A stretch of DNA of 64,000 nucleotides from a virus. The position numbers and the translations under genes are program-made. Of this stretch, positions 2,783-30,272 are shown in pieces. The notes under the pieces were generated by a model. It worked only from the letters and a program-made list of their open reading frames with translations, searched no databases and was not told where the DNA came from. Where the stretch lies: IMG/VR virus record IMGVR_UViG_3300046691_000092, positions 3,541 through 67,540 of that record; one strand, 5' to 3'. The number at the start of each line of letters is the position of its first letter. Position 1 is the stretch's first letter.

Positions 2783-5700
2783 ATGACGATGAAAGTTCAT
2801 ATTGACGTCAAGAACCGCGAAGTCATCGCCGAAAATCCTTGCGGGACGATGGGTTTCGTGACGTGGCGACGCCTGACGGAAGAACTGTTCCGCGAGGCGA
2901 ACGAAATCACGGAACGCGAAGAAGTGACCCACGTGACCATTGACAAGGATGGAATCACCTTCAGGATCGGGCGTAAGTGATGACAATGCATCTTCTTAAA
3001 TCAGACTTCGCGAACTTCCAATTTGAACGTCAGATTGCCAGTGACAACGGCGTCAAGACTCTTTCCGTCGTGATTAAGCCGTTCGACGGAACAGCTTATT
3101 ACAGGTTCGAAAACCGTCGTCGCGGGTCGATCAGCCATTTTGCGCTTTTCGAAGACGCGATCGAAGCGTTCAACACCGCGAAAACCGGGGGCTGATCGAT
3201 GAACGCCCAACGCTTCAACGAACTCGCCGACCTTGCCCGCATCTACTTTGAAGACGGGGCACCGGCAACCGCCGCAATGGCACTCCGTAAACTTGCGGAC
3301 GAACTGGACGTCGCGCAACAGAAGAAAAACGCGGAGCTTGACGCGCTTATCCGGGGGTCGCGCCGATGAACAAGGAACGCCTCTTACGCCTTGCCGACCG
3401 CATCGAAACCGCGACTGATTTCAACATGCGCGACTATCATTATTGCTTCGCCGGTCAGACGATCGCCGAATTCAAGCCGGAACCGGTCTATAACCCGATA
3501 ACCGACGCGCTTTCGAGACACAACACGGCCCGGCGCGCGCTGGACCTGACGAAGCGGCAGTCCGAAGACCTGTTCACGCCGTCGGTCCATCTGTGGCGGG
3601 ACCGGGGCATTAACAACGTTCACGCTATCACCAACAAGCAAGGCGCTGCGGTTCTTCGCCACTTCGCCGCAACTGAAAAAGTGGATTTCTCGATATGTCA
3701 ATGACCAAGCGGGAACAGTCGGAATTCGACATGATGCGCGCCCGTATGAGTATGGCGCAAGCGCTCCGTTGGCCGGAAGGTGAAAAGCCCGTACCCATGA
3801 CACGTGCCACGATTCAGGCCGCGTTACTTGGCCCGCACGCCGTCGAAGTACGGAGCGACTACGGCACAATGCGCAAGGCCGTCAAGGGTTGGGACTATCA
3901 CCATTGGAACGGCAACTATTCGGTTCGCGAAATCGTCACGGACGGGAACAGCCATGCCGGTCTATATGATGGTAAGGCGTCAGGATGGGCACAGGGCGGC
4001 GGACGGGTATTCACCACACGCGCGGATGCGTTGCGCGCGCTCCGGTTCGACATGACCGAATCATTCGCGGCGAACCTTGCCGACGTCGACAACATGATAA
4101 AGGCCGCACAATGACCGCATACGCCGAGTTTCACGGGCAAATTCTCCGGGAAGTCACCGGAATCAACATCGACGGCAAGACTTACGCGGCTTCCGCGATC
4201 GAACGCGACCACAACGATTTGCGCGCATTGTGCGGCGCGGTGTTGGAACACTTCGGAATTTCCGGCCTTGACGCGGTGTTGAAAACCGCCCTTGGTGTGC
4301 GTCATCAACCCGCCGAGCCCGCACCGTGCCCGACCTGTGGCGCTGATTGCGCCGGGGCGAACCCGCCCGTCACGTACTGCCCAATGCAGAACATCGAAGA
4401 ACTGAAGCGCGCCGTCGCTCCGCTCGTGGCTATCGCCAACGCATACGACGCGAATGATCTTGACGACGAAGCCCGGAAGCATTGGGGACCGGGACCGGAT
4501 CACAATGCTTTCACGAACGACACACCGCCGCAACAGATCGAACTTTACAGCGGACGCGGCGGCAAGCGCCTTCTGACCCTTGCCGACTGCATCACAGCAC
4601 GGAGCGCGGCGCGATGAGAACCGAACGGAGTATTCACGGTCTTTCCGGCGACGGGCAATATCACGAACGCCAAGCGATCGGCCCGTTCGTCACATACAAG
4701 CGCGTCCGGGTTCAGAAATGGTCGCCGGTCATGTCTGAAATCGAAGTCGAATGCGGCGTTCGTGTCGGGCGTTGGCGCTTCGGCCTGACGTCCAGCAAGT
4801 TGAAGTTCAGCGACGGGCAAGAACCTGCCGTTCAATACAAGAGGTACGGGCTATGAAATATCTAGCGTTATCATTCGCCGCGTGCCTTCGTCACGCATTC
4901 ATGAGCGGTGCCGGGTACGGCGATCTTGAACGGATCAGCGAAACCGATCAGCAACGATGGTCGCATTACAATCCGCCCGACGTCGGCGCGTTCACTCGCA
5001 TGAACGAAGCGATCCTGAAGATTGCCGAGCCCACGCCGTCGAATTGGCAACCGGTCGAAACACTGCCGAAGCAAGGTCGCATTCTCGCGACTTCCCGATA
5101 CACCGGTAACGCATGGGGCGAACCGTACGTGTTCGAATGGAACGCCCGCGCCGAGCTTTTCGACTGCCGCAAACGCGGCATTTGTATCTATCCGCAATTT
5201 GCTGACAAGTGGGTCGGCCTTCCGATTCCAGAGTTTCCCGCATGAAGTACGCCGGGCGCAATGCATGGGGTCAGCACGTCGTTGGGGCGCTTCACCGCGA
5301 ATGGTCGAACGGGATAACGATCGAATACGAAAACGGTGTTCGGGAATTCATCAACACCGCACGCGTCATTGGGCGCGTCGAAGAAACCGAAAGGGACGGC
5401 AATGCTGACTTATTCGGTCCCGTTCGCTGATTACGAAGCGGACATGAAAGAAACCGCCGAACAGGCGGCGGGGATTATCCGGAAGCTTCGCCGGGAAATC
5501 ACGAACCGCGATCAGCTAATCATATGGCTGATCAAGGCGGCGGGCGGTGAAATCCGCGTTCCGATTGAACGGATGCTTGAAACGGACGGAACCTTTCAGG
5601 TGTGGGAAGACCCGGCGAACTTCGCCCGAATTTACAAGGTGGAAAAATGACACACGAACGAATCATCGGCGTCGCGGTGCGACTGAACGGCGAGGTTTAC

Positions 5701-16168: not shown

Positions 16169-16243
16169 TGGGGAATAGCCAAGCGGTAAGGCTACGGTTT
16201 TTGGTGCCGTCATTCCTTGGTTCGAATCCAAGTTCCCCAACCA
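16169..16243 (+). tRNA. tRNA-Gln(UUG)
   Basis: Acceptor TGGGGAA/TTCCCCA, D-arm AGCCAAGCGGTAAGGCT, anticodon stem ACGGT/GCCGT with TTG at 16201-16203, GTTCGAATC T-loop, encoded CCA. Confidence 0.95.
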
Positions 16244-19672: not shown

Positions 19673-20212
19673 ATGGTTATTCGAGTCAACGATATCGTCA
19701 AAATCGTCACACCGGAAATCTTCATTCGGTGTGGTTACCCCTTCGATCAGATAGCGGCGACAGATCATCTTGTTGACCATTACGCCGAAGATGTTCAGGC
19801 GCTGATTACCAAGATCGACCCGAACGCCAAATATCCCCGCCGCTTCGGAAGCGGAAAGGATTTCCGCGATCTTTGCGGGCGTATCGCCCGGATCGTCGCA
19901 ACGCGTGACGGCTTCGGCGGATGGACGCGGTCGCTTCACACGGAGCGGAAAGAAGAATGGACCGGGCTTCGGTGTCAGGTCCGCGCCAAGAAGGTACACA
20001 AGACCGGAAACTATTTTCCGCCGACGGGCGGGGATGAATGGTATGAGCCGGGCGGCTTGGATAACGAAAAGACACACGTCATATTGACCGTCTCGCCGAT
20101 CTGGTTTTATGACAATAACGGTCGGGTAAATCGAACGATATTCCCGGACGGTGCGCCGCCGTCACAGTTTCAAATCGAACGAATTCACGTCGAAAAGGAA
20201 AACACGCCTTGA
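19673..20212 (+). CDS. hypothetical protein
   Basis: Operon-tiling ORF. Confidence 0.55.
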   Translation: MVIRVNDIVKIVTPEIFIRCGYPFDQIAATDHLVDHYAEDVQALITKIDPNAKYPRRFGSGKDFRDLCGRIARIVATRDGFGGWTRSLHTERKEEWTGLRCQVRAKKVHKTGNYFPPTGGDEWYEPGGLDNEKTHVILTVSPIWFYDNNGRVNRTIFPDGAPPSQFQIERIHVEKENTP

Positions 20213-20426
20213 ACGTCCAGAACATGACCGCGAAAATTCTTCGCGAAATCAGCCGTCGCCAGTTTACGCACCAAGAAACGGCAGATATTTTCATCCTCGC
20301 AACGGCAATGCTGTTTTTCCAGATCGCCCACGGTCGACAAGAGGTTCAGTTTATCGGTGTCGACAAGTTCGCCGACGAAGTGAAAAACCTTCTTCGCACC
20401 TTCAACCTTGAAGCCGGTATTCCGAA

Positions 20427-20708
20427 TTGACCGGCCTTCCCGGTGTCAAGCCCGCATTCGTTGCCCCGGAATGGTTTATTCCGGGGTATCACCGGACACA
20501 ACGGAGAACACCGTTGACCCCGGAACACGTCTTCGTCGGCGAAGATTACCAGACGGTTTACACCGCCGAAGAAGTGCTTTCAGCCGTCGAACAGCGGTCG
20601 TTCTGCACAATCGGCCCGCTGCCGGTGATCCTGTTCCGCAAGGGCGTCATCAACGCCGAAGAATTTCTTGAATCGATCCACGCAAGGGATTTCAATATTG
20701 TCGGATGA
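20427..20708 (+). CDS. hypothetical protein (N-terminal GLPGVKP)
   Basis: TTGA-coupled to 20209..20430 and overlapping the polymerase start. Confidence 0.55.
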   Translation: MTGLPGVKPAFVAPEWFIPGYHRTQRRTPLTPEHVFVGEDYQTVYTAEEVLSAVEQRSFCTIGPLPVILFRKGVINAEEFLESIHARDFNIVG

Positions 20709-22776
20709 ACGCACCGAAGCGTACCCGCAAGACGTCGGGTTTGACCTTGAAGTTTACCAAGACGTTTTCACCGCAATTTTCGTCCACATCCTGACCGGGC
20801 ACCGATGGGTTTTCGAGATATCGGACCGGGTCAACCACTCGAAAGAGTTGTTCGAACAACTCTATCATGCCAAGCGCTGCAACATGCGCTTCGTGGGTTT
20901 CAATAACGTCGGGTTTGACTATCCGGTATTGCATGAATTCCTGAATATTTACGCCGCCCAAGGTGTGGTTTACCCGATTCAGCTTTACGCGAAATCGTCG
21001 TCCATTATTCATAGTGGGGACCGGTTCGGGTCGATGATTTGGCCGCGCGATCGGTTGATTCCGCAACTCGATTTGTATCTGATCCACCATTTTGACAATC
21101 CGGCGAAAACCACGAGCCTGAAGGCGCTGGAAATCAACATGCGGTCGCATACGGTCGAAGACTTGCCGTTTGATCCGAACTTCCCGATCGGTGTCGAGAA
21201 CATCCCGAAGCTGATCCAATACAACGCCCACGACGTCGCCGAGACGATCAAGTTCTACATGCATAGTCTTTCGGCGATCGAAACGCGTATGTCGCTCGTG
21301 GAAAAGATCGGCCCGGACGTCATCAACTACAATGACACGAAGATCGGCAAGGAATTCTTCATCGGCGAGCTTGAAAAAGCCCAACCGGGAATTTGCTTCG
21401 ATCGGTCGACGCGTAAGAAGGTGCCGCGACAGACGCCGCGCCCGAACGGAATCGCGCTCCGGGATGTGATCTTCCCATACGTCCAGTTTCAACACCCTGA
21501 ACTGCAACGCGTGCTGGAATACCTGAAGACGGTGACGATCACAAACACCAAGTCGGCGGAAGAACTGAAAGACCTTCACGCGATCATAAACGGGTTCCGG
21601 TTCGACTTCGGCACGGGCGGAATTCACGGATCGATTGAAAAGCGAATTGTGCGGTCGGATGATGATTATATCATCGTTGACGCCGACGTCGCTTCGTTCT
21701 ATCCGAACCTTGCGATCAAGAACCGGGTTTTCCCGGCGCACCTGTCGGAACTGTTTTGCACGGTCTATTCGGACCTATATGACACGCGTCAGAAGTACCC
21801 GAAGAAGTCCGCCACGAACCTTCTATACAAGCTCGCGCTGAACGGCGTCTACGGTGACAGCAACAACGTTTATGGCCCGTTCCTTGACCCGCAATATACC
21901 ATGACGATCACCGTCAACGGTCAGCTACTACTTTGCATGTGTGCGGAGTGGGTCATTGCCGAATGTGACGCCGAAATGATCCAAGCGAACACCGACGGTT
22001 TCACGGTTCGCATCCCCCGGAGCAAGCGCGCCCGGTACGATGAAATTTGCAAGTGGTGGCAAGACCTGACGAAGCTGACGCTTGAATTCGTGGACTATGA
22101 AGCGATGTTCATCCGCGACGTGAATTCGTATATTGCGAAGTCGACGTCCGGCAAGCTGAAGCGGGTAGGCGCATATCAGCATGTAACGCCCGTGGACGGC
22201 GAATCGTTCAAGAAGGCACCGGAACGCGGGTGGCACCAAGACCACGGGGCACTTGTCATTCAGAAGGCGGCGGAAGCGGCAATGTTGGCCGGGGCGGATA
22301 TCGGGCAATTCATCCGATCGCACAAAGACGCCTTTGATTTCATGATGCGAATCAAAGTACCGCGATCGTCCAAATTGTGCGCCGTTTACGCCGCGCCAAA
22401 GTGGGCTTATCCGGTTCACCACGAATGGGCCGGGCCATCGGGGCACGTGATCGGCTGGCAACAGAACGAAGCGCCGGTTCCCTTCATTGGTCCGCCGAAC
22501 GGCGCGATCGTGCAAAACATCTGCCGGTATTATGTAGCGAATACAAACGTTTCGCTTATGAAGATCATGCCGCCAATGCCGAAGAAACCGGACGCTGAAC
22601 GCCACTTCAGCGTTGAATCCGGGTGGAATGTTCATCTGTGCAACACCCTTGACGAATGGGACTGGTCGACGGTGAACTATGATTACTATATCGAAGAAGC
22701 AAAAAAGCTTGTGTTGACAGACGACGTCAAACCGGCATATCAGGGACTATTCGCGCCGGTCAAATTGGCCGCGTAA
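20668..22776 (+). CDS. DNA polymerase, family B-like, with 3'-5' exonuclease
   Basis: Exo motifs FDLEV, FNNVGFD, YNAHDV; pol motifs DADVASFYP, KLALNGVYG, QANTDG; start may be TTG 20698. Confidence 0.9.
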   Translation: MNRSTQGISILSDERTEAYPQDVGFDLEVYQDVFTAIFVHILTGHRWVFEISDRVNHSKELFEQLYHAKRCNMRFVGFNNVGFDYPVLHEFLNIYAAQGVVYPIQLYAKSSSIIHSGDRFGSMIWPRDRLIPQLDLYLIHHFDNPAKTTSLKALEINMRSHTVEDLPFDPNFPIGVENIPKLIQYNAHDVAETIKFYMHSLSAIETRMSLVEKIGPDVINYNDTKIGKEFFIGELEKAQPGICFDRSTRKKVPRQTPRPNGIALRDVIFPYVQFQHPELQRVLEYLKTVTITNTKSAEELKDLHAIINGFRFDFGTGGIHGSIEKRIVRSDDDYIIVDADVASFYPNLAIKNRVFPAHLSELFCTVYSDLYDTRQKYPKKSATNLLYKLALNGVYGDSNNVYGPFLDPQYTMTITVNGQLLLCMCAEWVIAECDAEMIQANTDGFTVRIPRSKRARYDEICKWWQDLTKLTLEFVDYEAMFIRDVNSYIAKSTSGKLKRVGAYQHVTPVDGESFKKAPERGWHQDHGALVIQKAAEAAMLAGADIGQFIRSHKDAFDFMMRIKVPRSSKLCAVYAAPKWAYPVHHEWAGPSGHVIGWQQNEAPVPFIGPPNGAIVQNICRYYVANTNVSLMKIMPPMPKKPDAERHFSVESGWNVHLCNTLDEWDWSTVNYDYYIEEAKKLVLTDDVKPAYQGLFAPVKLAA

Positions 22777-22790
22777 GACGAAACGGAGAA

Positions 22791-23162
22791 ATGCACCACA
22801 TGAGCAAACTTAAAATCTACCTTGCGGGACAAATGAGCGGAATTCCGAAATTCAACTTCCCGGCGTTCCATGCCGCTGCCGCGACGCTTCGCGCGCAAGG
22901 TCATTACGTGTTCAATCCGGCTGAAGCCGATATTGAGCGTTCCGGCGTCGACCCGTCCGTTCTGAACCCGGAAGGTGACCCGAACGGTAGCACCGCCGCA
23001 ATCCCCGGCCTGTCGCGTCGTGAATGCCTTGCTGCTGATCTGGCGTGGATCGCCGCCGAAGGTGAAGCGATCGCGCTTCTTCCCAATTGGGAGAATTCCA
23101 GCGGAGCGCGGGCGGAAAAGGCGCTTGCCGACGCCCTGAACCTTCGGGTGATTTACCTGTGA
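22791..23162 (+). CDS. DUF4406 / nucleoside 2-deoxyribosyltransferase-like protein
   Basis: KIYLAGQMSG...FNFPAF...NPAE...LLPNWENSSGARAE. Confidence 0.8.
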   Translation: MHHMSKLKIYLAGQMSGIPKFNFPAFHAAAATLRAQGHYVFNPAEADIERSGVDPSVLNPEGDPNGSTAAIPGLSRRECLAADLAWIAAEGEAIALLPNWENSSGARAEKALADALNLRVIYL

Positions 23163-23373
23163 GGGAAGCACCGGCACCGGAATACCGGTTCGACCCCGGT
23201 AAGATCAAAATCAAACTTATGTCGATTTTCGTCGCCAAGGGAATCGACGTCATGTCGGCGCTCGAATGTGCGCATGATTGCGTGACTGCCGGGAAGACAA
23301 CCGCGTTTTGGCGCGACCGTATGGCGGTACTTGACGCCGACGCGCTGGATAAAGACCTTGAAAGGATGAAAGC

Positions 23374-23670
23374 ATGAGCAAGGCAGGGGATAACGACACG
23401 GACGCGCACGGTGTCGCACGTGATCAGCTTCGGGCGTTCGTTGAACGTATCGAGCGACTCGAAGAAGAGAAAAAGACGATCGCCGAAGACATTAAGGATG
23501 TTTACGGCGAACTGAAGGGAATGGGCTTCGACGCCAAAATGGTCAAAAAAGTGATCGCACTTCGCAAGAAGGACGAACAAGAGCGCATGGAAGAAGATGC
23601 GATTCTTGAAACGTATATGGTGGCGCTTGGGATGCTCGCCGAAGGCAAGCTTCCGGGAACAACCGAATGA
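23374..23670 (+). CDS. gapR: GapR-family (DUF2312) nucleoid-associated protein
   Basis: [37 protein letters not shown]...YMVALGM matches the DUF2312 consensus. Confidence 0.9.
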
Positions 23671-23975
23671 TGGGAACCCGCGTCTATACGCTCCTGACGC
23701 CCGGTCAGAAAAAGGAACTTGTCGCACTCGCCGCCAAGCAAGACCGGTCCGTTTCCTACCTGATCGCCCGCGCGGTCAAAGATCACATCGGCGCGCGGGG
23801 TTGTGGTCATACGGCGGCGCAAGCAACTGAAAAGGCATTTGCGCGTACCGATCGCGACACCGCCGACTCCGTCAAGGACATGGCGGCTAAAACCGGTTGG
23901 TGTGAATGGCAAGTCGTGAACGCCGCAATCGAAACCTATTTGGAGACACATTCGGATGCGCTTTGTAACGCTTAA
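23667..23975 (+). CDS. tandem ribbon-helix-helix protein
   Basis: RVYTLL...[20 protein letters not shown] and a second similar unit. Confidence 0.6.
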
Positions 23976-24516
23976 CGGACCGCTTCAGTGCGGTAAGTCG
24001 TGGGTCGTGAAGAACCTTCGCGCCCGGTTCCCGGAAACCCGCTTCGAAGCCGTGTCGTTTCAGGATACGCTCGCCGCGTCCGTGCCGATCCTGCTAGGTG
24101 TCGCCGGTGTCGACTATGAGACGTTCAAGAAAACCGACTATTATGGTCGGACCGGGCGCCAGCATATTATCGACGTGGCGACGAAGAAGCGCGAATTTGA
24201 CCCGCTATTCTTTTCACGCGTTCTCGCCGATCGGATGCGCACGATGAACCACACGACACATACGGGGCGGCGGCGCGTGTTCATCGCCGACTCGAACGGT
24301 TTCGCCGACGAACTCGGTTTCATGCGTGGTCAGACGGATATCGATCTGCTACCCTGTTCGATCGAACCGCCCGACACCGTGGCACGTGGCGAGAAATACC
24401 CTGATCCCGATTCGCGCTTCAATCTCGCGCACATGTGCGCCGTCGTCACGCCCGATTCATCGGTGATGCTAGAAAGACTTTCCGAAAGGCTGATTGCACG
24501 CGGTTGGGCGGCTTGA
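23956..24516 (+). CDS. dNMP kinase-like P-loop protein
   Basis: GPLQCGKS, SFQDTL, TGRQ, IADSNGFADE. Confidence 0.7.
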   Translation: MRFVTLNGPLQCGKSWVVKNLRARFPETRFEAVSFQDTLAASVPILLGVAGVDYETFKKTDYYGRTGRQHIIDVATKKREFDPLFFSRVLADRMRTMNHTTHTGRRRVFIADSNGFADELGFMRGQTDIDLLPCSIEPPDTVARGEKYPDPDSRFNLAHMCAVVTPDSSVMLERLSERLIARGWAA

Positions 24517-24544
24517 CGGCCCGGCGAATCGTGCTATCGTAGCT

Positions 24545-24803
24545 GCATTCGGAAGTTATATCTTCCTGCCGAAACAGTATAACGGGGTAAGGTCATGTAG
24601 ATCGCAACGCGGGGCGCGTAGGGACCGGAGACGGACCAATAAACCCTTGATAACGTACAGTGTTTAGATGGAATGTGAAGCGCGAAAGCCAGCGCGGTAA
24701 GAAGGCGTCCGGCCCGACTTTAGGGTGACAAGATCGGCCTTGAAAAGACGGAATTTTAAGATAGTCCTTGCCAAGCCCCGGAACTTCCGGGGCTTTTCTT
24801 TTT
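24545..24803 (+). ncRNA. candidate structured non-coding RNA
   Basis: Upstream TTGACG-N16-TATCGT; no ORF of note; several stems including GNRA loops; ends in an intrinsic terminator. Confidence 0.5.
24773..24803 (+). terminator. Rho-independent terminator
   Basis: AAGCCCCGGA-ACT-TCCGGGGCTT followed by TTCTTTTT. Confidence 0.9.
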
Positions 24804-24807
24804 GCGA

Positions 24808-24868
24808 TTGACGTCTGATCCGAAACGACTTATAAACGACGTCAACAACGCAACACGGAGCGACTCAC
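24808..24868 (+). promoter_or_regulatory. conserved promoter cassette, copy 4
   Basis: TTGACG-N17-TATAAA with CCGAAACGACT; ACGGAG RBS. Confidence 0.8.
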
Positions 24869-25723
24869 ATGGCTTTCATCCCGAAACTTTTCGTCAGTAT
24901 CGGCAAAGATCAGCATTTCTTTACACTTCGTGAAACCTACGAACACACCACATATTTGCCCGGCGCAAACGGCAACGCCGTGGTCAATGGCGTCTATCAG
25001 GGCACGGCGATCAAGGAAACGCGTTCGTTTCACCACTTCAACCTGTCGCAAGACGCGGACGAAGCTTGGCCGAAGGCGCAAGAAGCGTCAGCGCGCTTCG
25101 GGTTGCCGCTCATGGGCTCGCGTGACGAAATCGTTGAAGAAATGCGCGACATCGCACGCGCCACGGCTGAACAGCTTGCGCAGCGCGAAGCGGAGCGGCT
25201 TGAATGGGAAGCTGAACGAAAAGCCATGCGCGAAGCGGAATTTGCCCGCAAGGTCGCAATGATCAATGACGGCCTGTTCGCGTTCGGCCCGTTTGTCGGA
25301 AAGCCCTTCACGGAAGGCGAACCGGGCTATCTGGAATGGTTCGTGGATAAGCGCGATGACTTCGAAGTCGATTCGTTGCCGCGACTGACCGCCGATGCGA
25401 TCTTGAAGTTCGCTGCCGATCGACTGCCGCCCAAGGCTGACCCGAACAAGACGGTCGGCGAAGTGGGCAAGCGGATTGACCTTGACGTGACGGTTGTCCG
25501 GTCGTTCAGCTTCACCCGCGACGCGTTCAGCGGGTACGGTACGGAGACGGTGACAATTACGACTATGGTCACGTCCGACCGGACTTGTGTGGTCGTCAAG
25601 TCGACGGCGTTTTGCGCGGACGTCGGTGCATCGTTCAAGCTCCGGGGCACCGTCAAGGCGCATGAAGAATACAAGGGTCAAATGCAAACCATCCTGCAAC
25701 GTGTAAAGATGCTTGACGCATGA
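24869..25723 (+). CDS. early protein with probable C-terminal OB-fold
   Basis: VGEVGKRIDLDVTV...LRGTVKAHEEYKGQMQTILQRVK; internal FGPFVG...YLEW motif. Confidence 0.65.
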   Translation: MAFIPKLFVSIGKDQHFFTLRETYEHTTYLPGANGNAVVNGVYQGTAIKETRSFHHFNLSQDADEAWPKAQEASARFGLPLMGSRDEIVEEMRDIARATAEQLAQREAERLEWEAERKAMREAEFARKVAMINDGLFAFGPFVGKPFTEGEPGYLEWFVDKRDDFEVDSLPRLTADAILKFAADRLPPKADPNKTVGEVGKRIDLDVTVVRSFSFTRDAFSGYGTETVTITTMVTSDRTCVVVKSTAFCADVGASFKLRGTVKAHEEYKGQMQTILQRVKMLDA

Positions 25724-25769
25724 TACGAAACGACTTATAAACGTTGGTATTGAAACGGAGAAAACGAAA
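25713..25769 (+). promoter_or_regulatory. conserved promoter cassette, copy 5 (right arm deleted)
   Basis: TTGACG-N17-TATAAA-CGTTGGTATTGAAAC-GGAG. Confidence 0.8.
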
Positions 25770-27227
25770 ATGACTATCGCTCTTGTGAACGAAATCGCCG
25801 CTGACGTAATTGCTAACCTGAAGCGTAACCCTAATGGCTTCACGGCTGAAACGCTCGTTAAGAATTGGGAAGATCGTATTGCTTGGCTTGGTTTGAAAGT
25901 CGGCGGTCAGGCATGGGTTCGTGAACTGGTCAAGGTCGCCCGCGCCGGTTGGATCGCCACAACGCAAAAGACGACGGTTTTCATTCCGCCGAGCGAAGAA
26001 ACGCTTTCATGGGGTGGTTTCCTTGGCGGCGAATATGTTTCTACCGAAGAAATGCGCCTGACCGCCGACGAAGCCTTTGAAAAGAGGTTTGCGGCGTGAA
26101 AGAGGACACGTTTAAAGCTGGTGACGCGGTGCGAGTAAGTGCCGCGTTTCTTCGTTCGATATGCCCGTCAGCGGCGAAGGGTTGGCCGACGACTCGCGAT
26201 CCGGGGAAAGGTCAGGTTCTCGCGGTCACCCCTTGCGGTCATACCGATTTAGTGCACGTATGGTTTTTCGACTTATCGATACCGAAAACGTACAATTCCG
26301 CGAACTTGGTGCACGATCGCGATGTTTATCGCGAATCGATGTGTGCCGAACATCGAAACGAATTCAAGGTTATCTGACATGAAACAACTAATTCTGAACT
26401 TCCTATATCCGGACTTCGATTGCGCAGACTGCAACGGCATGTGCCGCATGTACGGCGCTTGCGAATGTGCCTATCATCATGCAGTTGCGCCGGGGGTCGG
26501 CCCGTCGAAGCTGATCCGGTTTCTTCGTCGCGCCTATGCGTTTCTGACGTCACCGGCATGGATGAACGAACCGACGGTCGTCGCCGAGTGGACGCGCACG
26601 ATGCAGGGTCATCCGTACTATCGGGCGTGGGAACTGCCGGACTTTTCCAACGACACTGCCGACACGCTGAAGCTTCGTGACTATTGCTTACGTGACGTCA
26701 TGAACGCCAGTTACGGGCGGTTCAGTGATCGGCGCGACCCCATGCCGGTTTACCGCGAGCTTGCGGCAGTCCGCGACGAAATGCGGGTGCGGAAGGCGCT
26801 GGCATGATCGTGTATCACGGGTTCGACGCGTATCGGCTGACCGGCTGGAAACTGTTCATAGGGCTTTTCAAACGCCCTGACGTCGCTTTCGGCGGGCTCT
26901 TGCACCGCTTCAACATCGCGTTCCACATCAGCCGTCAGTTCGGTTTCATGGTTGCGATCCACACTTACCCGGCTTGGGCGGACGTTCCGAGTGTCAAGGC
27001 CGAATATGAAAGGACTATGAGGCATGTCTGACCGTTATACACTGGAATATAAGCGGGAACGCTCATCTGACGGCAAGCAACTGACGCGGGTCGGGATTAC
27101 CTTTGAGGGGAAATGGTGCGGCTATTACAAATCATTCGCCGGGGCGATGACGTGTCTGACGATCCGCAAGGTCCCACCGGACGAAGCGCGCGCCGCCGTC
27201 GCGAAATATTGGCCGCATAAGGGTTGA
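25770..27227 (+). other. five small hypothetical genes (25770-26099, 26096-26377, 26379-26807, 26804-27031, 27024-27227)
   Basis: Coupled + strand ORFs behind cassette 5. Confidence 0.6.
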
Positions 27228-27369
27228 CGGCGGTCATGATCTATTTCAAGGGTGCGACTGCCTACGAACTTCAAATCGGTAAGGTGTGGGTGATGTGGTG
27301 TCACCTGACCGGAAATTATTGGCGATGGAAGCCTTGGCGGCGGTTCAGTATGGGACTCGAAAGAGACGG

Positions 27370-27431
27370 TTGACGGCACGTCCGAAACGACTTATAAGCG
27401 TTGGTGTTTCAATACCAACGGAGTGACCGAC
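27370..27431 (+). promoter_or_regulatory. conserved promoter cassette, copy 6 (spacer inverted)
   Basis: TTGACG-N17-TATAAG-CGTTGGT-GTTTCAAT-ACCAACG-GAGTGACCGAC. Confidence 0.85.
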
Positions 27432-27767
27432 ATGGCCGGGAAACAGTTTGAAATCTATCAGGCATACAAAGAACGCACGGAGCGGAACAACGTCAAGCCC
27501 GGCCCGTGTATCAAAGGTGACGCGGTGTTCAAGGAACTTCGCGCGAATATCGCGGATTTCGACTTCAACAAGCCTTACAGCACCACGACTCGTTATTGGG
27601 ACAACGGCCCACGCACGAAGGTTTTCAAGTTCGATGACGGTCGTATCGCCGAGTACGCTACGACGAATTCTGCGATCGGCACCGCGCTTCTTGTCGTGTT
27701 CGAAAAACACGATCACTGGCTCAACTACCGGCGTGCAATGGGCATGTTCCATTACCTGAACACTTAA
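27432..27767 (+). CDS. hypothetical early protein
   Basis: ATG after the cassette RBS. Confidence 0.7.
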   Translation: MAGKQFEIYQAYKERTERNNVKPGPCIKGDAVFKELRANIADFDFNKPYSTTTRYWDNGPRTKVFKFDDGRIAEYATTNSAIGTALLVVFEKHDHWLNYRRAMGMFHYLNT

Positions 27768-28993
27768 CCCGACGCGCCGCGTACCATTTCCGGGGAAAGT
27801 GTGAACCGCGACACTTCCCCGAATTCCTTGTGATAGACGATCGCTTTCGCGTCCCGCTTGGTCACATGCCCCATCGACGCGGAATAGGAATCAGCCGGGG
27901 CAAGCGTGCGGTGCCGCTCCGTCTTCATCAGATTGCTATCCTTGGCTTCGTCGTTATGCCAATGCCCGACATGACCGTACGAATGCGGGCAACGACCGAA
28001 GATTTCCCGGAACGTCCCGGCGAATGTGGCGTCAACGTCCTTGACCTGTCGCCGGTGCCCGTGGTGATAGAATAGTGCCGTCTTTCCCCATTCGAAAACG
28101 TAATATTCCGACGGCGTCGTGTCGATCGTGATCCGGGGTTCATCCTCATACAGCGCCGCGAAGCCTTCGCGCATCCATCCCGACGAATAGGGGTCATGGT
28201 TCGCCTTCGCCATGATGACATGAACGTGCATGTGTTTTTCGAGTAGCATTGCAATGATGCGCCGGACGACGCGGATAATCACGCGGATCATCTTTTGCGG
28301 ACGGCTGTCACCGTCGACCACGTGCTTTGACGTCGGCGTGACGGTTTCCATGCTGTCATAATGGGCAAGGTCGCCAAGCTGCGCAAATATGGCGGTGTGC
28401 GCTGCCGGTGCCATTGCAATCGCGGCGGTGAACCAATCCGTCAGGAGCTTTTCGCCGATCTGCAAATCATAGTCAGCGACGCGGGTTTCTTCGGCCCACG
28501 CCAGCATTCCGAAATGCAGGTCCGTCACGGTGTACTGAACGCAAAGCTGACCGTTGACGAAGGTCGGGGCGGCGGTGATCGGAAGTCGCGGCAAGGACGC
28601 CTTGAATTCGTCCAGCGCGAGCCGCCAAGCCGTCGCTGACTGCGTTTCGGTCTTGGTCTTGATCCATTTGACGATTTCGCGTCCGTCTTCGTCCACGAGC
28701 GCCGAGACGCCGCTAAGCGCCTGACCTTCCGGTATGGTGAAGATTTCACCGCGTTCCGGCTTTTGCTGGACAAATGTTCCGTTCGGGGTTTCGGTCGTCT
28801 GACTGACACGGAAGCCCGGCAGCACCGGCTTGAATCCGAGCAAGCCTTTTTCGGCGCAACGCTTCAACCTGTTGTCGAGTGATTGACGTTTGATACCGAG
28901 CGCGGCGGCGGTTTTGGTCTTGTTCTGGTCATTGTCGGCGTACGCCTTGGCGGTCGCTTCAATTTCTTCGTGGGTCAGCGTGAAGTTGGTCAA
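27764..28993 (-). CDS. HTH plus calcineurin-like metallophosphoesterase
   Basis: TDLHFG, LGDLAHYD, ANHD, HHGH, GHWH; N-terminal KTAAALGIKRQSL. Confidence 0.8.
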   Translation of the reverse strand: MTNFTLTHEEIEATAKAYADNDQNKTKTAAALGIKRQSLDNRLKRCAEKGLLGFKPVLPGFRVSQTTETPNGTFVQQKPERGEIFTIPEGQALSGVSALVDEDGREIVKWIKTKTETQSATAWRLALDEFKASLPRLPITAAPTFVNGQLCVQYTVTDLHFGMLAWAEETRVADYDLQIGEKLLTDWFTAAIAMAPAAHTAIFAQLGDLAHYDSMETVTPTSKHVVDGDSRPQKMIRVIIRVVRRIIAMLLEKHMHVHVIMAKANHDPYSSGWMREGFAALYEDEPRITIDTTPSEYYVFEWGKTALFYHHGHRRQVKDVDATFAGTFREIFGRCPHSYGHVGHWHNDEAKDSNLMKTERHRTLAPADSYSASMGHVTKRDAKAIVYHKEFGEVSRFTLSPEMVRGASG

Positions 28994-29256
28994 AGCGGGT
29001 TCCCCATAGCTTTCTCATGGATTTCGCGTGGGACGAAGACGGATTGCACGACGCATCCGTTCGTGTCGATCACCGCCGCGTAAATGTTGACCGCGCCCCG
29101 GATCGTCAGCATTGAAGAAATGTGGGCATCAGCGGGAAGCGGAAGGCCGATCAGGCTGGAATAGGTGCGAACCACGGACGCCGGAACGACCTGTTCGATT
29201 GCGAGCTTGTCACGGTCGGCAAGGCGCACAATGTCCGCGTCAGTAATACACGTCAT
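28990..29256 (-). CDS. hypothetical protein
   Basis: Coupled in the late operon. Confidence 0.55.
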   Translation of the reverse strand: MTCITDADIVRLADRDKLAIEQVVPASVVRTYSSLIGLPLPADAHISSMLTIRGAVNIYAAVIDTNGCVVQSVFVPREIHEKAMGNPL

Positions 29257-29582
29257 GCAAGACCGATCGCGTGCATGAGTTTTTCACGAAGACCGATGAC
29301 CACGCCGCCGAAGATCGCCCCGACGGCAGACACGGCGGCAATCATGCCAATCCCGCGCTGTTCCCATTGCTTCGCTTTGTCGATAAACGGTTTTGCGGAA
29401 TTGACGTCTCTTTCAACAAAAACCGTGCGCAGTTCCAACGCCGATACGGTGCGGGCAAGTTCAACACGTACTGACGCCTCGTGATCAAGCGTCTTTTCGA
29501 TATTTTCGAGTTTTTCAAGTACCGTGCCAAGCGTACGATTAATTTCGTACATCATGGGTGAACTATCAGTCATGCGCGCCAT
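29253..29582 (-). CDS. coiled-coil protein with C-terminal TM (lysis-associated, DUF1515-like)
   Basis: Coiled coil then GIGMIAAVSAVGAIFGGVVIG. Confidence 0.55.
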   Translation of the reverse strand: MARMTDSSPMMYEINRTLGTVLEKLENIEKTLDHEASVRVELARTVSALELRTVFVERDVNSAKPFIDKAKQWEQRGIGMIAAVSAVGAIFGGVVIGLREKLMHAIGLA

Positions 29583-29611
29583 TCCTTTGCTACGGGAAAC
29601 GTAGCGCAAGC

Positions 29612-29944
29612 TTACGGGGTTTGCATACCCCGCGCCGCTTCGACCTGACGTTTCCGATACCATTCGGCGCACCACGTCTTGCGAACATCGTCGGAATCGA
29701 TGGGAAGCTGTTGCCGATCGAACGCATGACGCCACTTTTCGCCGACCTTCGGCGTCACTCGCGCGACATGTTCGGAACAGTACGCCGGATAGTCCGGAAG
29801 GATCGTCGGCGATTCGGCAATGACTTTCTGAACCGTCGGCTTAACGAGCGCCGCGACGTCGCTTTGACAGCCAATCAACATCAGATTGGGTAACAGAAGC
29901 ACCATCGTCAGTGTCTTCCGAAACGGCTTGGTCATAACGGTCAT
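29612..29944 (-). CDS. o-spanin (Rz1-like lipoprotein)
   Basis: Lipobox LIGC; overlaps the 3' end of the i-spanin in another frame; Pro/Cys content. Confidence 0.7.
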   Translation of the reverse strand: MTVMTKPFRKTLTMVLLLPNLMLIGCQSDVAALVKPTVQKVIAESPTILPDYPAYCSEHVARVTPKVGEKWRHAFDRQQLPIDSDDVRKTWCAEWYRKRQVEAARGMQTP

Positions 29945-30272
29945 TGCTTTCCAGTTCCTTCATTCGGGCGGTTTCGACTTGCTGACGGGCTTCGTCGGCA
30001 GCTTCCCGGCTTTGCTGTTCCTCGCGCCGCACCTTGGCCGCGATTGCTTCGGCGGCGGATATCCGGGCGGCAGCTACAAGCTTTTCAGTTGCGACCTTGA
30101 CCTGTTCGTCGGCATAGACGTGTTTTTCACCCGCCGTAAACGACCCGATCACCGGGACGCTTGTCAGGTACGGAATGCGCGCGAAGCCCGGCAGTCCTTC
30201 GTAGTAGAAGATCATCACGAACGCGCCTAGCGCGGCGTATGCGGCGGCTTTGACAGCGGCGATAGGGTTCAT
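29841..30272 (-). CDS. i-spanin (Rz-like)
   Basis: N-terminal TM plus coiled coil, directly after the endolysin. Confidence 0.7.
   Translation of the reverse strand: MNPIAAVKAAAYAALGAFVMIFYYEGLPGFARIPYLTSVPVIGSFTAGEKHVYADEQVKVATEKLVAAARISAAEAIAAKVRREEQQSREAADEARQQVETARMKELESNDRYDQAVSEDTDDGASVTQSDVDWLSKRRRGAR

Follow-up and report, generated by a model that had tools for sequence, protein, structure and literature searches.

The DNA studied here is a stretch of 64,000 nucleotides (nt) from the IMG/VR virus record IMGVR_UViG_3300046691_000092 (positions 3,541 to 67,540; hereafter the window), which covers the greater part of a phage record of 67.5 kb that has direct terminal repeats. A gap between two of its genes (24517-24868 in window numbering, 352 nt, free of open reading frames (ORFs)) carries a small conserved element that consists of a Shine-Dalgarno (SD)-like run, an AUG start codon with a UAG stop codon directly behind it and, after a spacer of fixed length, a short GC hairpin. 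We propose, with about even confidence, that this element is a ribosome-docking start-stop RNA module and that the unit in the window is a small RNA (sRNA) of ~257 nt that displays it; this confidence covers the docking module itself and no single downstream effect. The proposal is built on the anatomy and conservation of the element, the covariation of its hairpin, a nucleotide constraint on its ATG-TAR, its single copy per genome and its position relative to predicted promoters. The element is not previously described; start-stop sites as such are already known. Literature searches with the core strings found no relevant paper (one unrelated plant paper matched), and a term search in the main text of a paper on phiLM21-like prophages found none of the terms GapR, DUF2312, ncRNA, 'non-coding' and 'small RNA'.

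The start-stop core and its hairpin

The core in the window starts with GGGG (24584-24587; this and all following features are on the plus strand), followed by a 7-nt spacer, the AUG (24595-24597), the UAG (24598-24600), a 6-nt spacer of the sequence AUCGCA (24601-24606) and a hairpin of five base pairs (bp), ACGCG-GGG-CGCGU (24607-24619), that begins 13 nt past the A of the AUG. AUG and UAG form a minimal ORF of one sense codon, and by its sequence GGGG-N7-AUG-UAG (24584-24600) qualifies as a bacterial start-stop site. It lies in the best-conserved block of the gap, AACGG(G/A)G-N7-ATG-TAG-AT(C/T)GCA-(A/G)CGCGGGGCGCG(T/C), and neither the AUG nor the UAG varies in alignments A1 and A3. An earlier description of the window, made from the letters alone and called here the sequence-only reading, had overlooked this SD-led AUG-UAG (24595-24600); the only ATG ORF that it saw in the gap, 10 codons long (24669-24701), has no ATG in the relatives. 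It had also named a translated small ORF as one of the observations that would speak against a non-coding RNA. This point is partly touched by the core: with an SD and a one-codon AUG-UAG 'ORF', the RNA is probably ribosome-bound.

The family was assembled with pattern scans. Exact patterns that contained neither the SD nor ATGTAG returned 13 distinct hairpin-bearing sequences with completely different flanks, and in each of the 13 an ATG-TAG is preceded, at a distance of 5-9 nt, by an SD-like run; seven distinct matches without ATGTAG are also without SD and look like chance. A scan that fixed only the SD and ATGTAGATYGCA returned 102 stretches, including 28 bona fide hairpin-bearing sequences. 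When spacer and loop were freed (95 stretches, 83 distinct), the stop was TAG in 73 and TAA in 10 of the distinct sequences, the spacer read A/C-N-N-GCA and the loops, of 14 types, all ended in G. Across the family, every loop is NNG, most spacers end in GCA, and the SD stands 5-9 nt upstream of the AUG and is a full AGGAGG in 58 of 96 distinct sequences. The conserved block is ~48 nt long, with flanks that cannot be aligned: for 94 pooled distinct sequences, ungapped identity is 0.72 in the core versus 0.31-0.32 in the flanks. A covariance model built from family sequences (R1) gives the window core 53.1 bits and the next best match 13.3 bits; the core is also the sole match in the window when up to three mismatches are allowed, while shuffles have none.

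The hairpin, which the sequence-only reading had listed as ACGCG/CGCGT, is supported by covariation. In the 28 sequences used for this analysis, all from scans that left the stem unconstrained, the pair positions are paired in 99.3%, compensatory changes are found at two of the five pairs, and the observed covariation score was reached by none of 500 shuffles. Pair 1 occurs as G-C, A-U or G-U and pair 3 as G-C, A-U or U-A. The double changes are from G-C to A-U in the window and in L013 (L numbers designate loci of the collection); in L030 and L032, G-C has become A-U and U-A, respectively, and these two loci were recognised as family members independently, by a second shared leader module (see below). 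The single G-U pair of the hairpin is that of L018.

About a hundred phages and prophages carry the element, always on the sense strand. All six complete phage genomes (the window phage and five others) have exactly one copy, and a 3.72-Mb S. meliloti replicon has a single match, in a prophage early region. A host chromosomal element was considered and rejected, as the S. meliloti copy is prophage-borne and the pattern with a GGGG loop has just two chance matches in 185,579 species genomes; prophage copies with other loops do occur in bacterial genomes.

Settings inside and outside genes

When 94 distinct sequences are sorted by context, 66 lie within a long ORF, 23 are clearly non-coding and 5 are intermediate. 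The ORF-embedded copies are all read in one frame (66/66), offset by +2 from the AUG. Their host ORFs are mosaic prophage early genes, with GapR, ParB-like or other domains at the N-terminus and Cys4 or ParB-like domains at the C-terminus, and the element sits in a low-complexity linker between them, where it is read as ..GANAGGEDVDRSAERA..; a cultured example is gp22 of Sinorhizobium phage phiLM21 (L040). This large mosaic early-protein family is found in Sinorhizobium, Ensifer and relatives (L040, L103, L156, L068, L200, L176 and ~60 other loci). The linker of 100-200 amino acids (aa) is followed by either a RPxCxNPxxCGGYGxxHCxxC...EEVA module or a ParB-like nuclease domain, and the precomputed annotation of the listed homologues (P0001-P0120) assigns no Pfam domain to the Cys4 module. 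One locus, L217 (CP090106.1, 1171355-1172254; titled pSymB, 3.72 Mb), has an intact element-bearing GapR-Cys4 gene for which the PLSDB gene table, itself incomplete, has no coding sequence; this may reflect a pseudogene call or an annotation gap.

Conservation inside genes could reflect the peptide or the nucleotides. Protein homologues of one host ORF, collected without any DNA pattern (177 matches, 120 listed), bear on this question. The motif is present in 94 of the 120 listed homologues. In these 94, the position ahead of the invariant Val is confined to the residues of the four NAT codons, with D in 76, Y in 10, N in 6 and H in 2, and never has E; the position behind the Val is confined to residues of RAN codons, with D in 65, E in 24, N in 3 and K in 2. 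Both sets are chemically mixed and share nucleotides, indicating that the constraint is on A-T-G-T-A-R-A rather than on the peptide: the limits at the protein level are those that a nucleotide constraint ATG-TAR-A would produce. The preference for UAG is also visible here, with at least 89 of the 94 motif-bearing proteins among the 120 listed. Homologous genes found by tblastn have SD-ATG-TAR in all four cases where the site is covered; RHph_TM3_3_3 and N28_2 have AGGAGG-N5-ATG-TAA and lack the GC hairpin. The remaining 26 of the 120 listed homologues do not have the motif, and close relatives carry a shorter alternative segment; thus, the element is optional for the protein.

Outside genes, the coding frame is closed (in the window by a stop 4 nt upstream) and the copies have ATG-TAG all the same. 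A promoter of the type TTGAC-N16-18 is found for 17 of 32 non-coding members versus 2 of 67 ORF-embedded members; in those 17, the -35 box is 65-128 nt upstream of the AUG, and the non-coding copies of the element usually stand 35-55 nt from the predicted 5' end. Some of the non-coding copies are in leaders of early operons downstream of repressor genes. Others are part of short promoter-element-terminator units at prophage ends, adjoined by a tRNA or integrase gene (L018, L019, L091 and L099); at the extreme prophage end are L018 (5390-5448, minus strand), L099 (1562-1633, plus strand) and L019 (integrase-like ORF opposite), a position that is typical for 'moron' genes expressed in the lysogen. 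In L016 and L130, the next gene follows immediately on a terminator. Between the element and the closest gene start downstream are 57-274 nt, if there is such a gene at all, and the first downstream ORFs of 22 non-coding members are unrelated, with the exception of the window group and one weak pair; a gene-specific leader was therefore rejected. The sense-only orientation, the upstream promoters of the non-coding class and the G-U pair together argue for a function as RNA rather than as DNA.

Nine of the leaders (L014, L015, L030, L032, L035, L059, L177, L192 and L211) share a second module, YUCCUGRGCAWGA...AAA(G/C)(G/U)GCYC, located 30-77 nt after the core hairpin and just upstream of the first early gene. 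Its stem alternates between GAGC/GCUC and GGGC/GCCC, which is a compensatory change, and GAUAGUCCUUGCCAAG of the window may be a distant counterpart. No Rfam family matched the second-module leaders L014, L030, L059, L177 and L211 at gathering threshold. In three of the nine, direct repeats flank the cassette of element and 3' module: 22 nt in L014 (at -63 and +136 from the AUG), 22 nt in L032 (-80 and +115) and 11 nt in L177 (-43 and +138), with the second copy just before the ribosome-binding site (RBS) of the first gene. These repeats could be the trace of an insertion or a duplication; as a general mark of mobility, target-site duplications were rejected, since 26 of the 29 non-coding members tested have no such repeats and those of L177 are doubtful.

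The predicted transcription unit of the window

The nearest cultured relatives of the window phage are nine Rhizobium phage records that match the gap: RHph_Y21, Y52, Y5A, Y2_4, TM3_3_9, Y60, TM3_3_13, TM3_3_10 and RHEph19. The gap is 351-352 nt long and unannotated in all three relatives whose annotation was inspected, and longer in one further IMG/VR phage contig (L012/L013). The gap alignment has an overall identity of ~66% by BLAST, yet contains blocks of 100% identity. No ORF is conserved: in the four lineages compared there are stops in all six frames and no common SD-led ORF of at least 12 codons, the AUG-UAG being the only shared SD-led start, and the gap indels among relatives are 21-22 nt, not multiples of three, and break the frames. 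A small protein gene was rejected, as no start is conserved in frame among the relatives. The gap is thus a conserved, predicted transcription unit without conserved ORF, and probably a functional RNA. The stand-alone, ORF-less unit of ~260 nt described by the sequence-only reading is supported as a unit bounded by a promoter and a terminator, with a predicted RNA of ~257 nt.

The predicted sigma-70-like promoter, P1, has its -35 box TTGACG (24513-24518) overlapping the stop codon of the upstream gene, a spacer of 16 nt and an extended -10 region (TG at 24532-24533, TATCGT at 24535-24540). It has 9 of 12 consensus matches in addition to the extended -10 TG, and the RNA is predicted to start near 24547. 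The spacer contains the invariant CGAATCGTG; all four relatives have this block, the -35 box, the TG and, within the -10 box, TA..(G/C)T. The GAATC at 24526-24530, inside CGAATCGTG, is invariant also in L009, L010, L011 and L013; GANTC is the methylation motif of CcrM, and the site may couple the promoter to DNA methylation or to control of the GcrA type.

The strong predicted intrinsic terminator (24773-24795, T tract to 24803) consists of AAGCCCCGG-AAC-UUCCGGGGCUU followed by UUCUUUUU. It has the properties of such terminators, a GC-rich hairpin and a U tract, and its stem is kept across the lineages, in which loops of other lengths and sequences occur. It has 10 pairs, 7 of them GC, corresponds to an 11-nt perfect inverted repeat (I1) and heads the list of terminators in 20000-30000. 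By number, neither type of signal exceeds expectation: this region has 6 promoter-like sites versus 4.7 +/- 2.2 in shuffles and 20 terminator-like sites versus 14.1 +/- 3.8. P1 and terminator, both located correctly by the sequence-only reading, are therefore not above chance by themselves, and it is their conservation in relatives that supports them.

Directly after the T tract follows P2 (24808-24836, TTGACG-N17-TATAAA), the promoter of the next operon, which is outside the RNA and marks its 3' boundary; with P1 at the other end, the unit is thus boxed between two operons. P2 belongs to a class of phage promoters with the invariant string TCCGAAACGACTTATAAACG, of which the window has five plus-strand copies (6945, 7445, 9053, 24808 and 25713); further copies are at ~27367 and in the genome upstream of the window. 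P1 is not a member. The pattern of the class, TTGAC-N6-T(C/A)CGAAACGACTTATAAACG, is invariant in spacer and -10 region, which suggests recognition by more than plain sigma-70, for example by a phage factor or as one temporal class. P2 is bracketed by an 8-nt perfect inverted repeat (TTGACGTC at 24808-24815, GACGTCAA at 24838-24845) that looks like an operator and is particular to this copy.

Outside the core, the predicted fold starts with a 5' hairpin, GGAAG-UUAUAU-CUUCC (24551-24566), which the sequence-only reading had listed and which is kept in the Y21 group in a longer form (GGGAAAG/CUUUCCC); TM3_3_9 and L013 have other hairpins in its place. The region behind the core (24620-24679) is variable: the tetraloop hairpin CCG-GAGA-CGG (24625-24634) of the earlier description is present, and L013 has the like of it with a GAAA loop (CCG-GAAA-CGG), but it is replaced in three of four aligned relatives, and the Y21, Y5A and TM3_3_9 lineages carry another stem there, CGGCGG...C(U/C)GCCG. 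A conserved 3' domain follows (24680-24772; RNAalifold consensus of five sequences from three lineages), which holds the invariant strings CGCGGUAAGAAGG, AAAGACGGA and GAUAGUCCUU. Its consensus fold has a stem GCGC/GCGC (24680-24683/24692-24695), which is what had been described as GC-GAAA-GC and corresponds to GCGUG/CACGC in L013, and a three-way junction of GGUAAG/CUUGCC (24696-24701/24767-24772), AAGGC/GCCUU (24702-24706/24737-24741) and GAC/GUC (24747-24749/24764-24766). Two further stems of the earlier description did not survive the comparison: CATTC/GAATG does not appear in the consensus, and the relatives show no complementarity between its two arms; CCGA-CTT/AAG-A-TCGG is in a 22-nt stretch that is absent from three of four aligned relatives. 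Because the changes in the 3' domain are one-sided or G-U only, and only 1 of the 52 predicted pairs in the consensus of the whole unit is compensatory, this fold is plausible but not proven.

The unit matches no family of Rfam 15, a collection that covers 6S RNA, RNase P RNA, transfer-messenger RNA, ribozymes, riboswitches and alpha-proteobacterial sRNAs among others. Rfam 15 at gathering threshold found only the tRNA at 16169 in the whole window; with E up to 10, the region 24400-24950 gave six sub-threshold matches, all over the terminator or P2, the best of them to sroD (20.4 bits versus a threshold of 50), and 12 member loci gave only two tRNAs. ARAGORN, which looks for transfer-messenger RNA as well as tRNA, identified only tRNA-Gln(UUG) at 16169-16243, the sole tRNA of the window. 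The early view that the unit is not a tRNA, transfer-messenger RNA or RNase P RNA is in agreement with these data. Its proposal of a functional non-coding RNA stands as far as the conserved promoter-terminator unit without ORF is concerned; of the particular types that it offered, a ribozyme left no sign even in the permissive Rfam scan, and an antitoxin mimic is disfavoured, as Tandem Repeats Finder (minimum score 30) returned no rows in 24300-25000 for tandem repeats (ToxI-like, 30-40 nt). Two ways of reading through the UAG were also rejected: a suppressor tRNA or stop recoding, because the only tRNA is Gln(UUG), and a dnaX- or prfB-like frameshift into the AUG-UAG frame, because by eye there is no conserved slippery sequence and the codon before the AUG varies.

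Upstream of the gap is a replication block on the plus strand, with DNA polymerase (20668-22776), a DUF4406 protein, GapR (23374-23670; Pfam E 6.4e-32), a weak RHH protein and, directly 5' of the gap, a deoxynucleoside monophosphate kinase-like protein (23956-24516); directly 3' is the ORF of a 284-aa protein without assigned function (24869-25723), and a search for related loci with this protein returned none. The functional tie to the GapR, RHH and kinase neighbours that had been suggested is not supported: GapR is present in only one of the five other element-bearing complete phage genomes, so a dependence on GapR was rejected, as was autoregulation by the Cys4 domain, which the window phage does not have. 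No particular partner gene is therefore implied.

Possible modes of action

If the element docks ribosomes, the course of events could be as follows. Host sigma-70 RNA polymerase would probably transcribe ~24547-24803 from P1, with the terminator ending the RNA. A 30S subunit would bind the SD and initiator tRNA would pair with the AUG; with UAG as the next codon, release factor 1 (RF1) would end the cycle before elongation, and no peptide would be made. The 5-bp GC hairpin 6 nt past the stop would then be at the mRNA entry channel, as we assume from the geometry of the ribosome. The RNA would act by holding or cycling the ribosome, and the module would have spread among phages and prophages of Rhizobiales-type hosts in early leaders, stand-alone RNAs and out-of-frame linkers.

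Several observations weigh against this docking module. The SD of the window, GGGG instead of GGAG, is the weakest of the family, and the predicted accessibility of the SD region is low (mean unpaired probability 0.22). The unit as a whole folds no better than shuffles (z = -0.40 on the plus and -0.87 on the minus strand). The scan with SD and ATGTAGATYGCA also returned 52 distinct GGAG...ATGTAGATYGCA strings without hairpin; in a collection of this size, the short string alone therefore does turn up by chance. GGAG, ATGTAR and the GCGCG stem were prescribed by the exact patterns with which the majority of members were collected, and the invariance of these letters is thus partly by design; UGA stops and other spacer lengths were never permitted by the DNA patterns, so that it is the protein data that speak for the rarity of UGA. 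Two thirds of the copies are in ORFs and in one frame, and some of the conservation could be due to a protein motif or to common descent. Finally, transcription, ribosome binding and everything downstream of binding are what we infer from the sequence.

For the effect of a docked ribosome, our preference, a tentative one, is protection or insulation of the carrier transcript by the parked ribosome and the hairpins on either side. Protection in cis fits those leaders and sRNAs in which the element is 35-55 nt from the predicted 5' end; protection of a 5' end does not fit the copies hundreds of nt inside a gene. There is a likeness to SD-type 5' mRNA stabilisers such as the polypurine stabiliser of Bacillus phage SP82, where a non-translating ribosome near the 5' end protects the downstream RNA. 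These examples are Gram-positive and depend on a 5' position, while two thirds of the phage family are far from a 5' end.

We consider it about as likely as cis protection that the RNA is a decoy or sponge acting in trans, with the AUG/UAG complex tying up RF1, a ribosome-dependent, mRNA-cleaving toxin of the RelE/YoeB type that infection triggers, or ribosomes. This is the only explanation that treats stand-alone sRNAs, leaders of unrelated genes and gene-internal copies alike, as the nature of the carrier transcript would not matter if it is abundant and early. Consistent with a decoy are the stand-alone units with nothing downstream (the window, L018, L019, L091 and L099), the presence or absence in close relatives, as expected for an accessory (26 of the 120 listed homologues are without the element), and the preference for UAG (73 of 83 distinct sequences; at least 89 of 94 proteins), the stop codon that is read only by RF1 and preferred by RelE. 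However, neither a target nor a co-occurring protein was found, stoichiometric titration of ribosomes by one RNA species is improbable, and a simple decoy has no need for the conserved 3' domain of the window RNA.

It is possible, though we would not expect it, that the element is a dedicated module for parking a ribosome which is itself the effector, with the stop specific for RF1 and the hairpin at the mRNA entrance serving this purpose. In one version it could serve as a decoy for RF1 or for a host defence that depends on the ribosome; in another it could tether ribosome and RNA polymerase (NusG-S10) and so keep Rho off untranslated early transcripts.

An unlikely alternative is control of read-through in cis, either by antitermination of the nut/put type or by a minimal leader-peptide attenuator acting on the terminator that follows. 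The nut sites of lambda and put sites of HK022 consist of a single-stranded stretch and a small hairpin in early transcripts, two per genome with one in each early operon, and ribosome traffic interferes with nut. They resemble the phage element in being a short conserved stretch plus hairpin just downstream of early promoters, sometimes with terminators behind. In L130 and L016 (the latter upstream of the small terminase subunit), promoter, element, terminator and gene follow each other without a promoter between terminator and gene, the layout of the window has this order too, and the element is early in early-operon transcripts downstream of repressor genes. By eye, there are short complementarities between the core hairpin and the arms of the terminator in L019, L091, L130 and the window, but such complementarities are expected by chance in GC-rich sequence, and when -15 to +15 around the AUG were masked, the terminator stayed in the minimum-energy fold of six of seven RNAs (L018 being the exception; the result refers to the equilibrium fold only). 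Further points against read-through control are the one copy per genome (the window and 5/5 others) instead of two, the P2 that the next operon of the window has for itself, and the many leaders for which a crude detector found no terminator after the element. In contrast to nut and put, the phage element carries an SD and a start codon, and no N-like protein was identified for it.

Quite improbable, in our view, is an action at the level of DNA or as a selfish element, be it recombination junction, mobile cassette or protein-binding palindrome (GCGCG-N3-CGCGC); SD, ATG and TAG would then only look like such because the element descends from a coding linker, GG-[DNHY]-V-[DE]. The element does lie at a mosaic boundary, with N-terminal (GapR, ParB, other) and C-terminal (Cys4, ParB-like) modules swapped around it, and its stem is a perfect inverted repeat; the single frame of the 66 ORF-embedded copies, the variable presence among close relatives, the occurrence once per genome and the direct repeats of 22 nt in L014 and L032 could be read in the same way. 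Against this, orientation is strictly sense, the spacing between SD and AUG varies from 5 to 9 nt while the SD is kept, the G-U pair and the exchange of A-U for G-C fit pairing in RNA, D/Y/N/H and D/E/N/K have nucleotides and not chemical properties in common, non-coding copies keep ATG-TAG with the coding frame closed, and 26 of 29 non-coding members have no direct repeats. That the unit has no function of its own and is the 3' tail and terminator of the DNA polymerase/GapR/kinase operon, with P1 a chance match, would agree with the 9/12 score of P1, promoter-like sites as common as in shuffles and the absent excess of folding energy, but is very hard to reconcile with blocks of 100% identity in an otherwise diverged, indel-rich gap, a core common to unrelated phages and invariant letters in the P1 spacer that no coding constraint explains.

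Start-stop sites in known systems and significance

The closest known sites are the out-of-frame start-stop sites that Meydan et al. mapped in E. coli by Ribo-RET; they bind ribosomes and mildly lower the expression of the host gene (10.1101/520783). There are 14 such sites, with a reduction of ~16% for yecJ (10.1101/520783). The phage element is like them in its SD-like run, the AUG with a stop at once and the position that can be out of frame within a gene. It differs in being a block of ~48 nt in which the spacer is fixed and the hairpin covaries, whereas the E. coli sites are individual and no conserved family is reported for them; the phage element, known here from its sequence alone, is moreover also found outside genes, as leader or sRNA. 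In S. meliloti, which belongs to the same host order, upstream RBSs that are occupied by ribosomes and have no detectable product modulate a neighbouring RBS (PMC13285730). These RBSs likewise hold ribosomes with an SD and a start, but they occlude a main RBS that is 3-25 nt away, while the phage element has its next gene start at a distance of 57-274 nt or none at all.

A phage-borne relative in kind may be the bar minigenes of lambda (Hernandez-Sanchez et al. 1998, listed in PMC2490762), which reportedly have two sense codons and act by drop-off of peptidyl-tRNA. Both are SD-led mini-ORFs without useful product that act, or in our case would act, via the translation machinery, and there is a likeness in location, with one copy of bar near attP and L018, L019 and L099 at prophage ends. 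The phage element is not a minigene of the bar type, which has at least two sense codons: only the AUG precedes its stop, AUG-UAG allows only fMet-tRNA, and the two have no similarity in sequence.

Up to now, start-stop sites were known as isolated curiosities; here they form a conserved and portable sequence family with a single copy in each phage genome. About a hundred phages and prophages of rhizobia, which are important in agriculture, carry it in coding as well as non-coding settings. In the GapR/ParB-Cys4 prophage genes, a nucleic-acid element can dictate 16 residues of a protein linker. The family is a tractable natural system in which to ask of what use a ribosome is that starts and then stops immediately. 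If the element is only a stabiliser of RNA, it is still a widespread, unannotated phage RNA element that merits an entry in RNA family libraries; if it is a decoy or an anti-Rho device, it would represent a new class of phage-host interaction at the ribosome.

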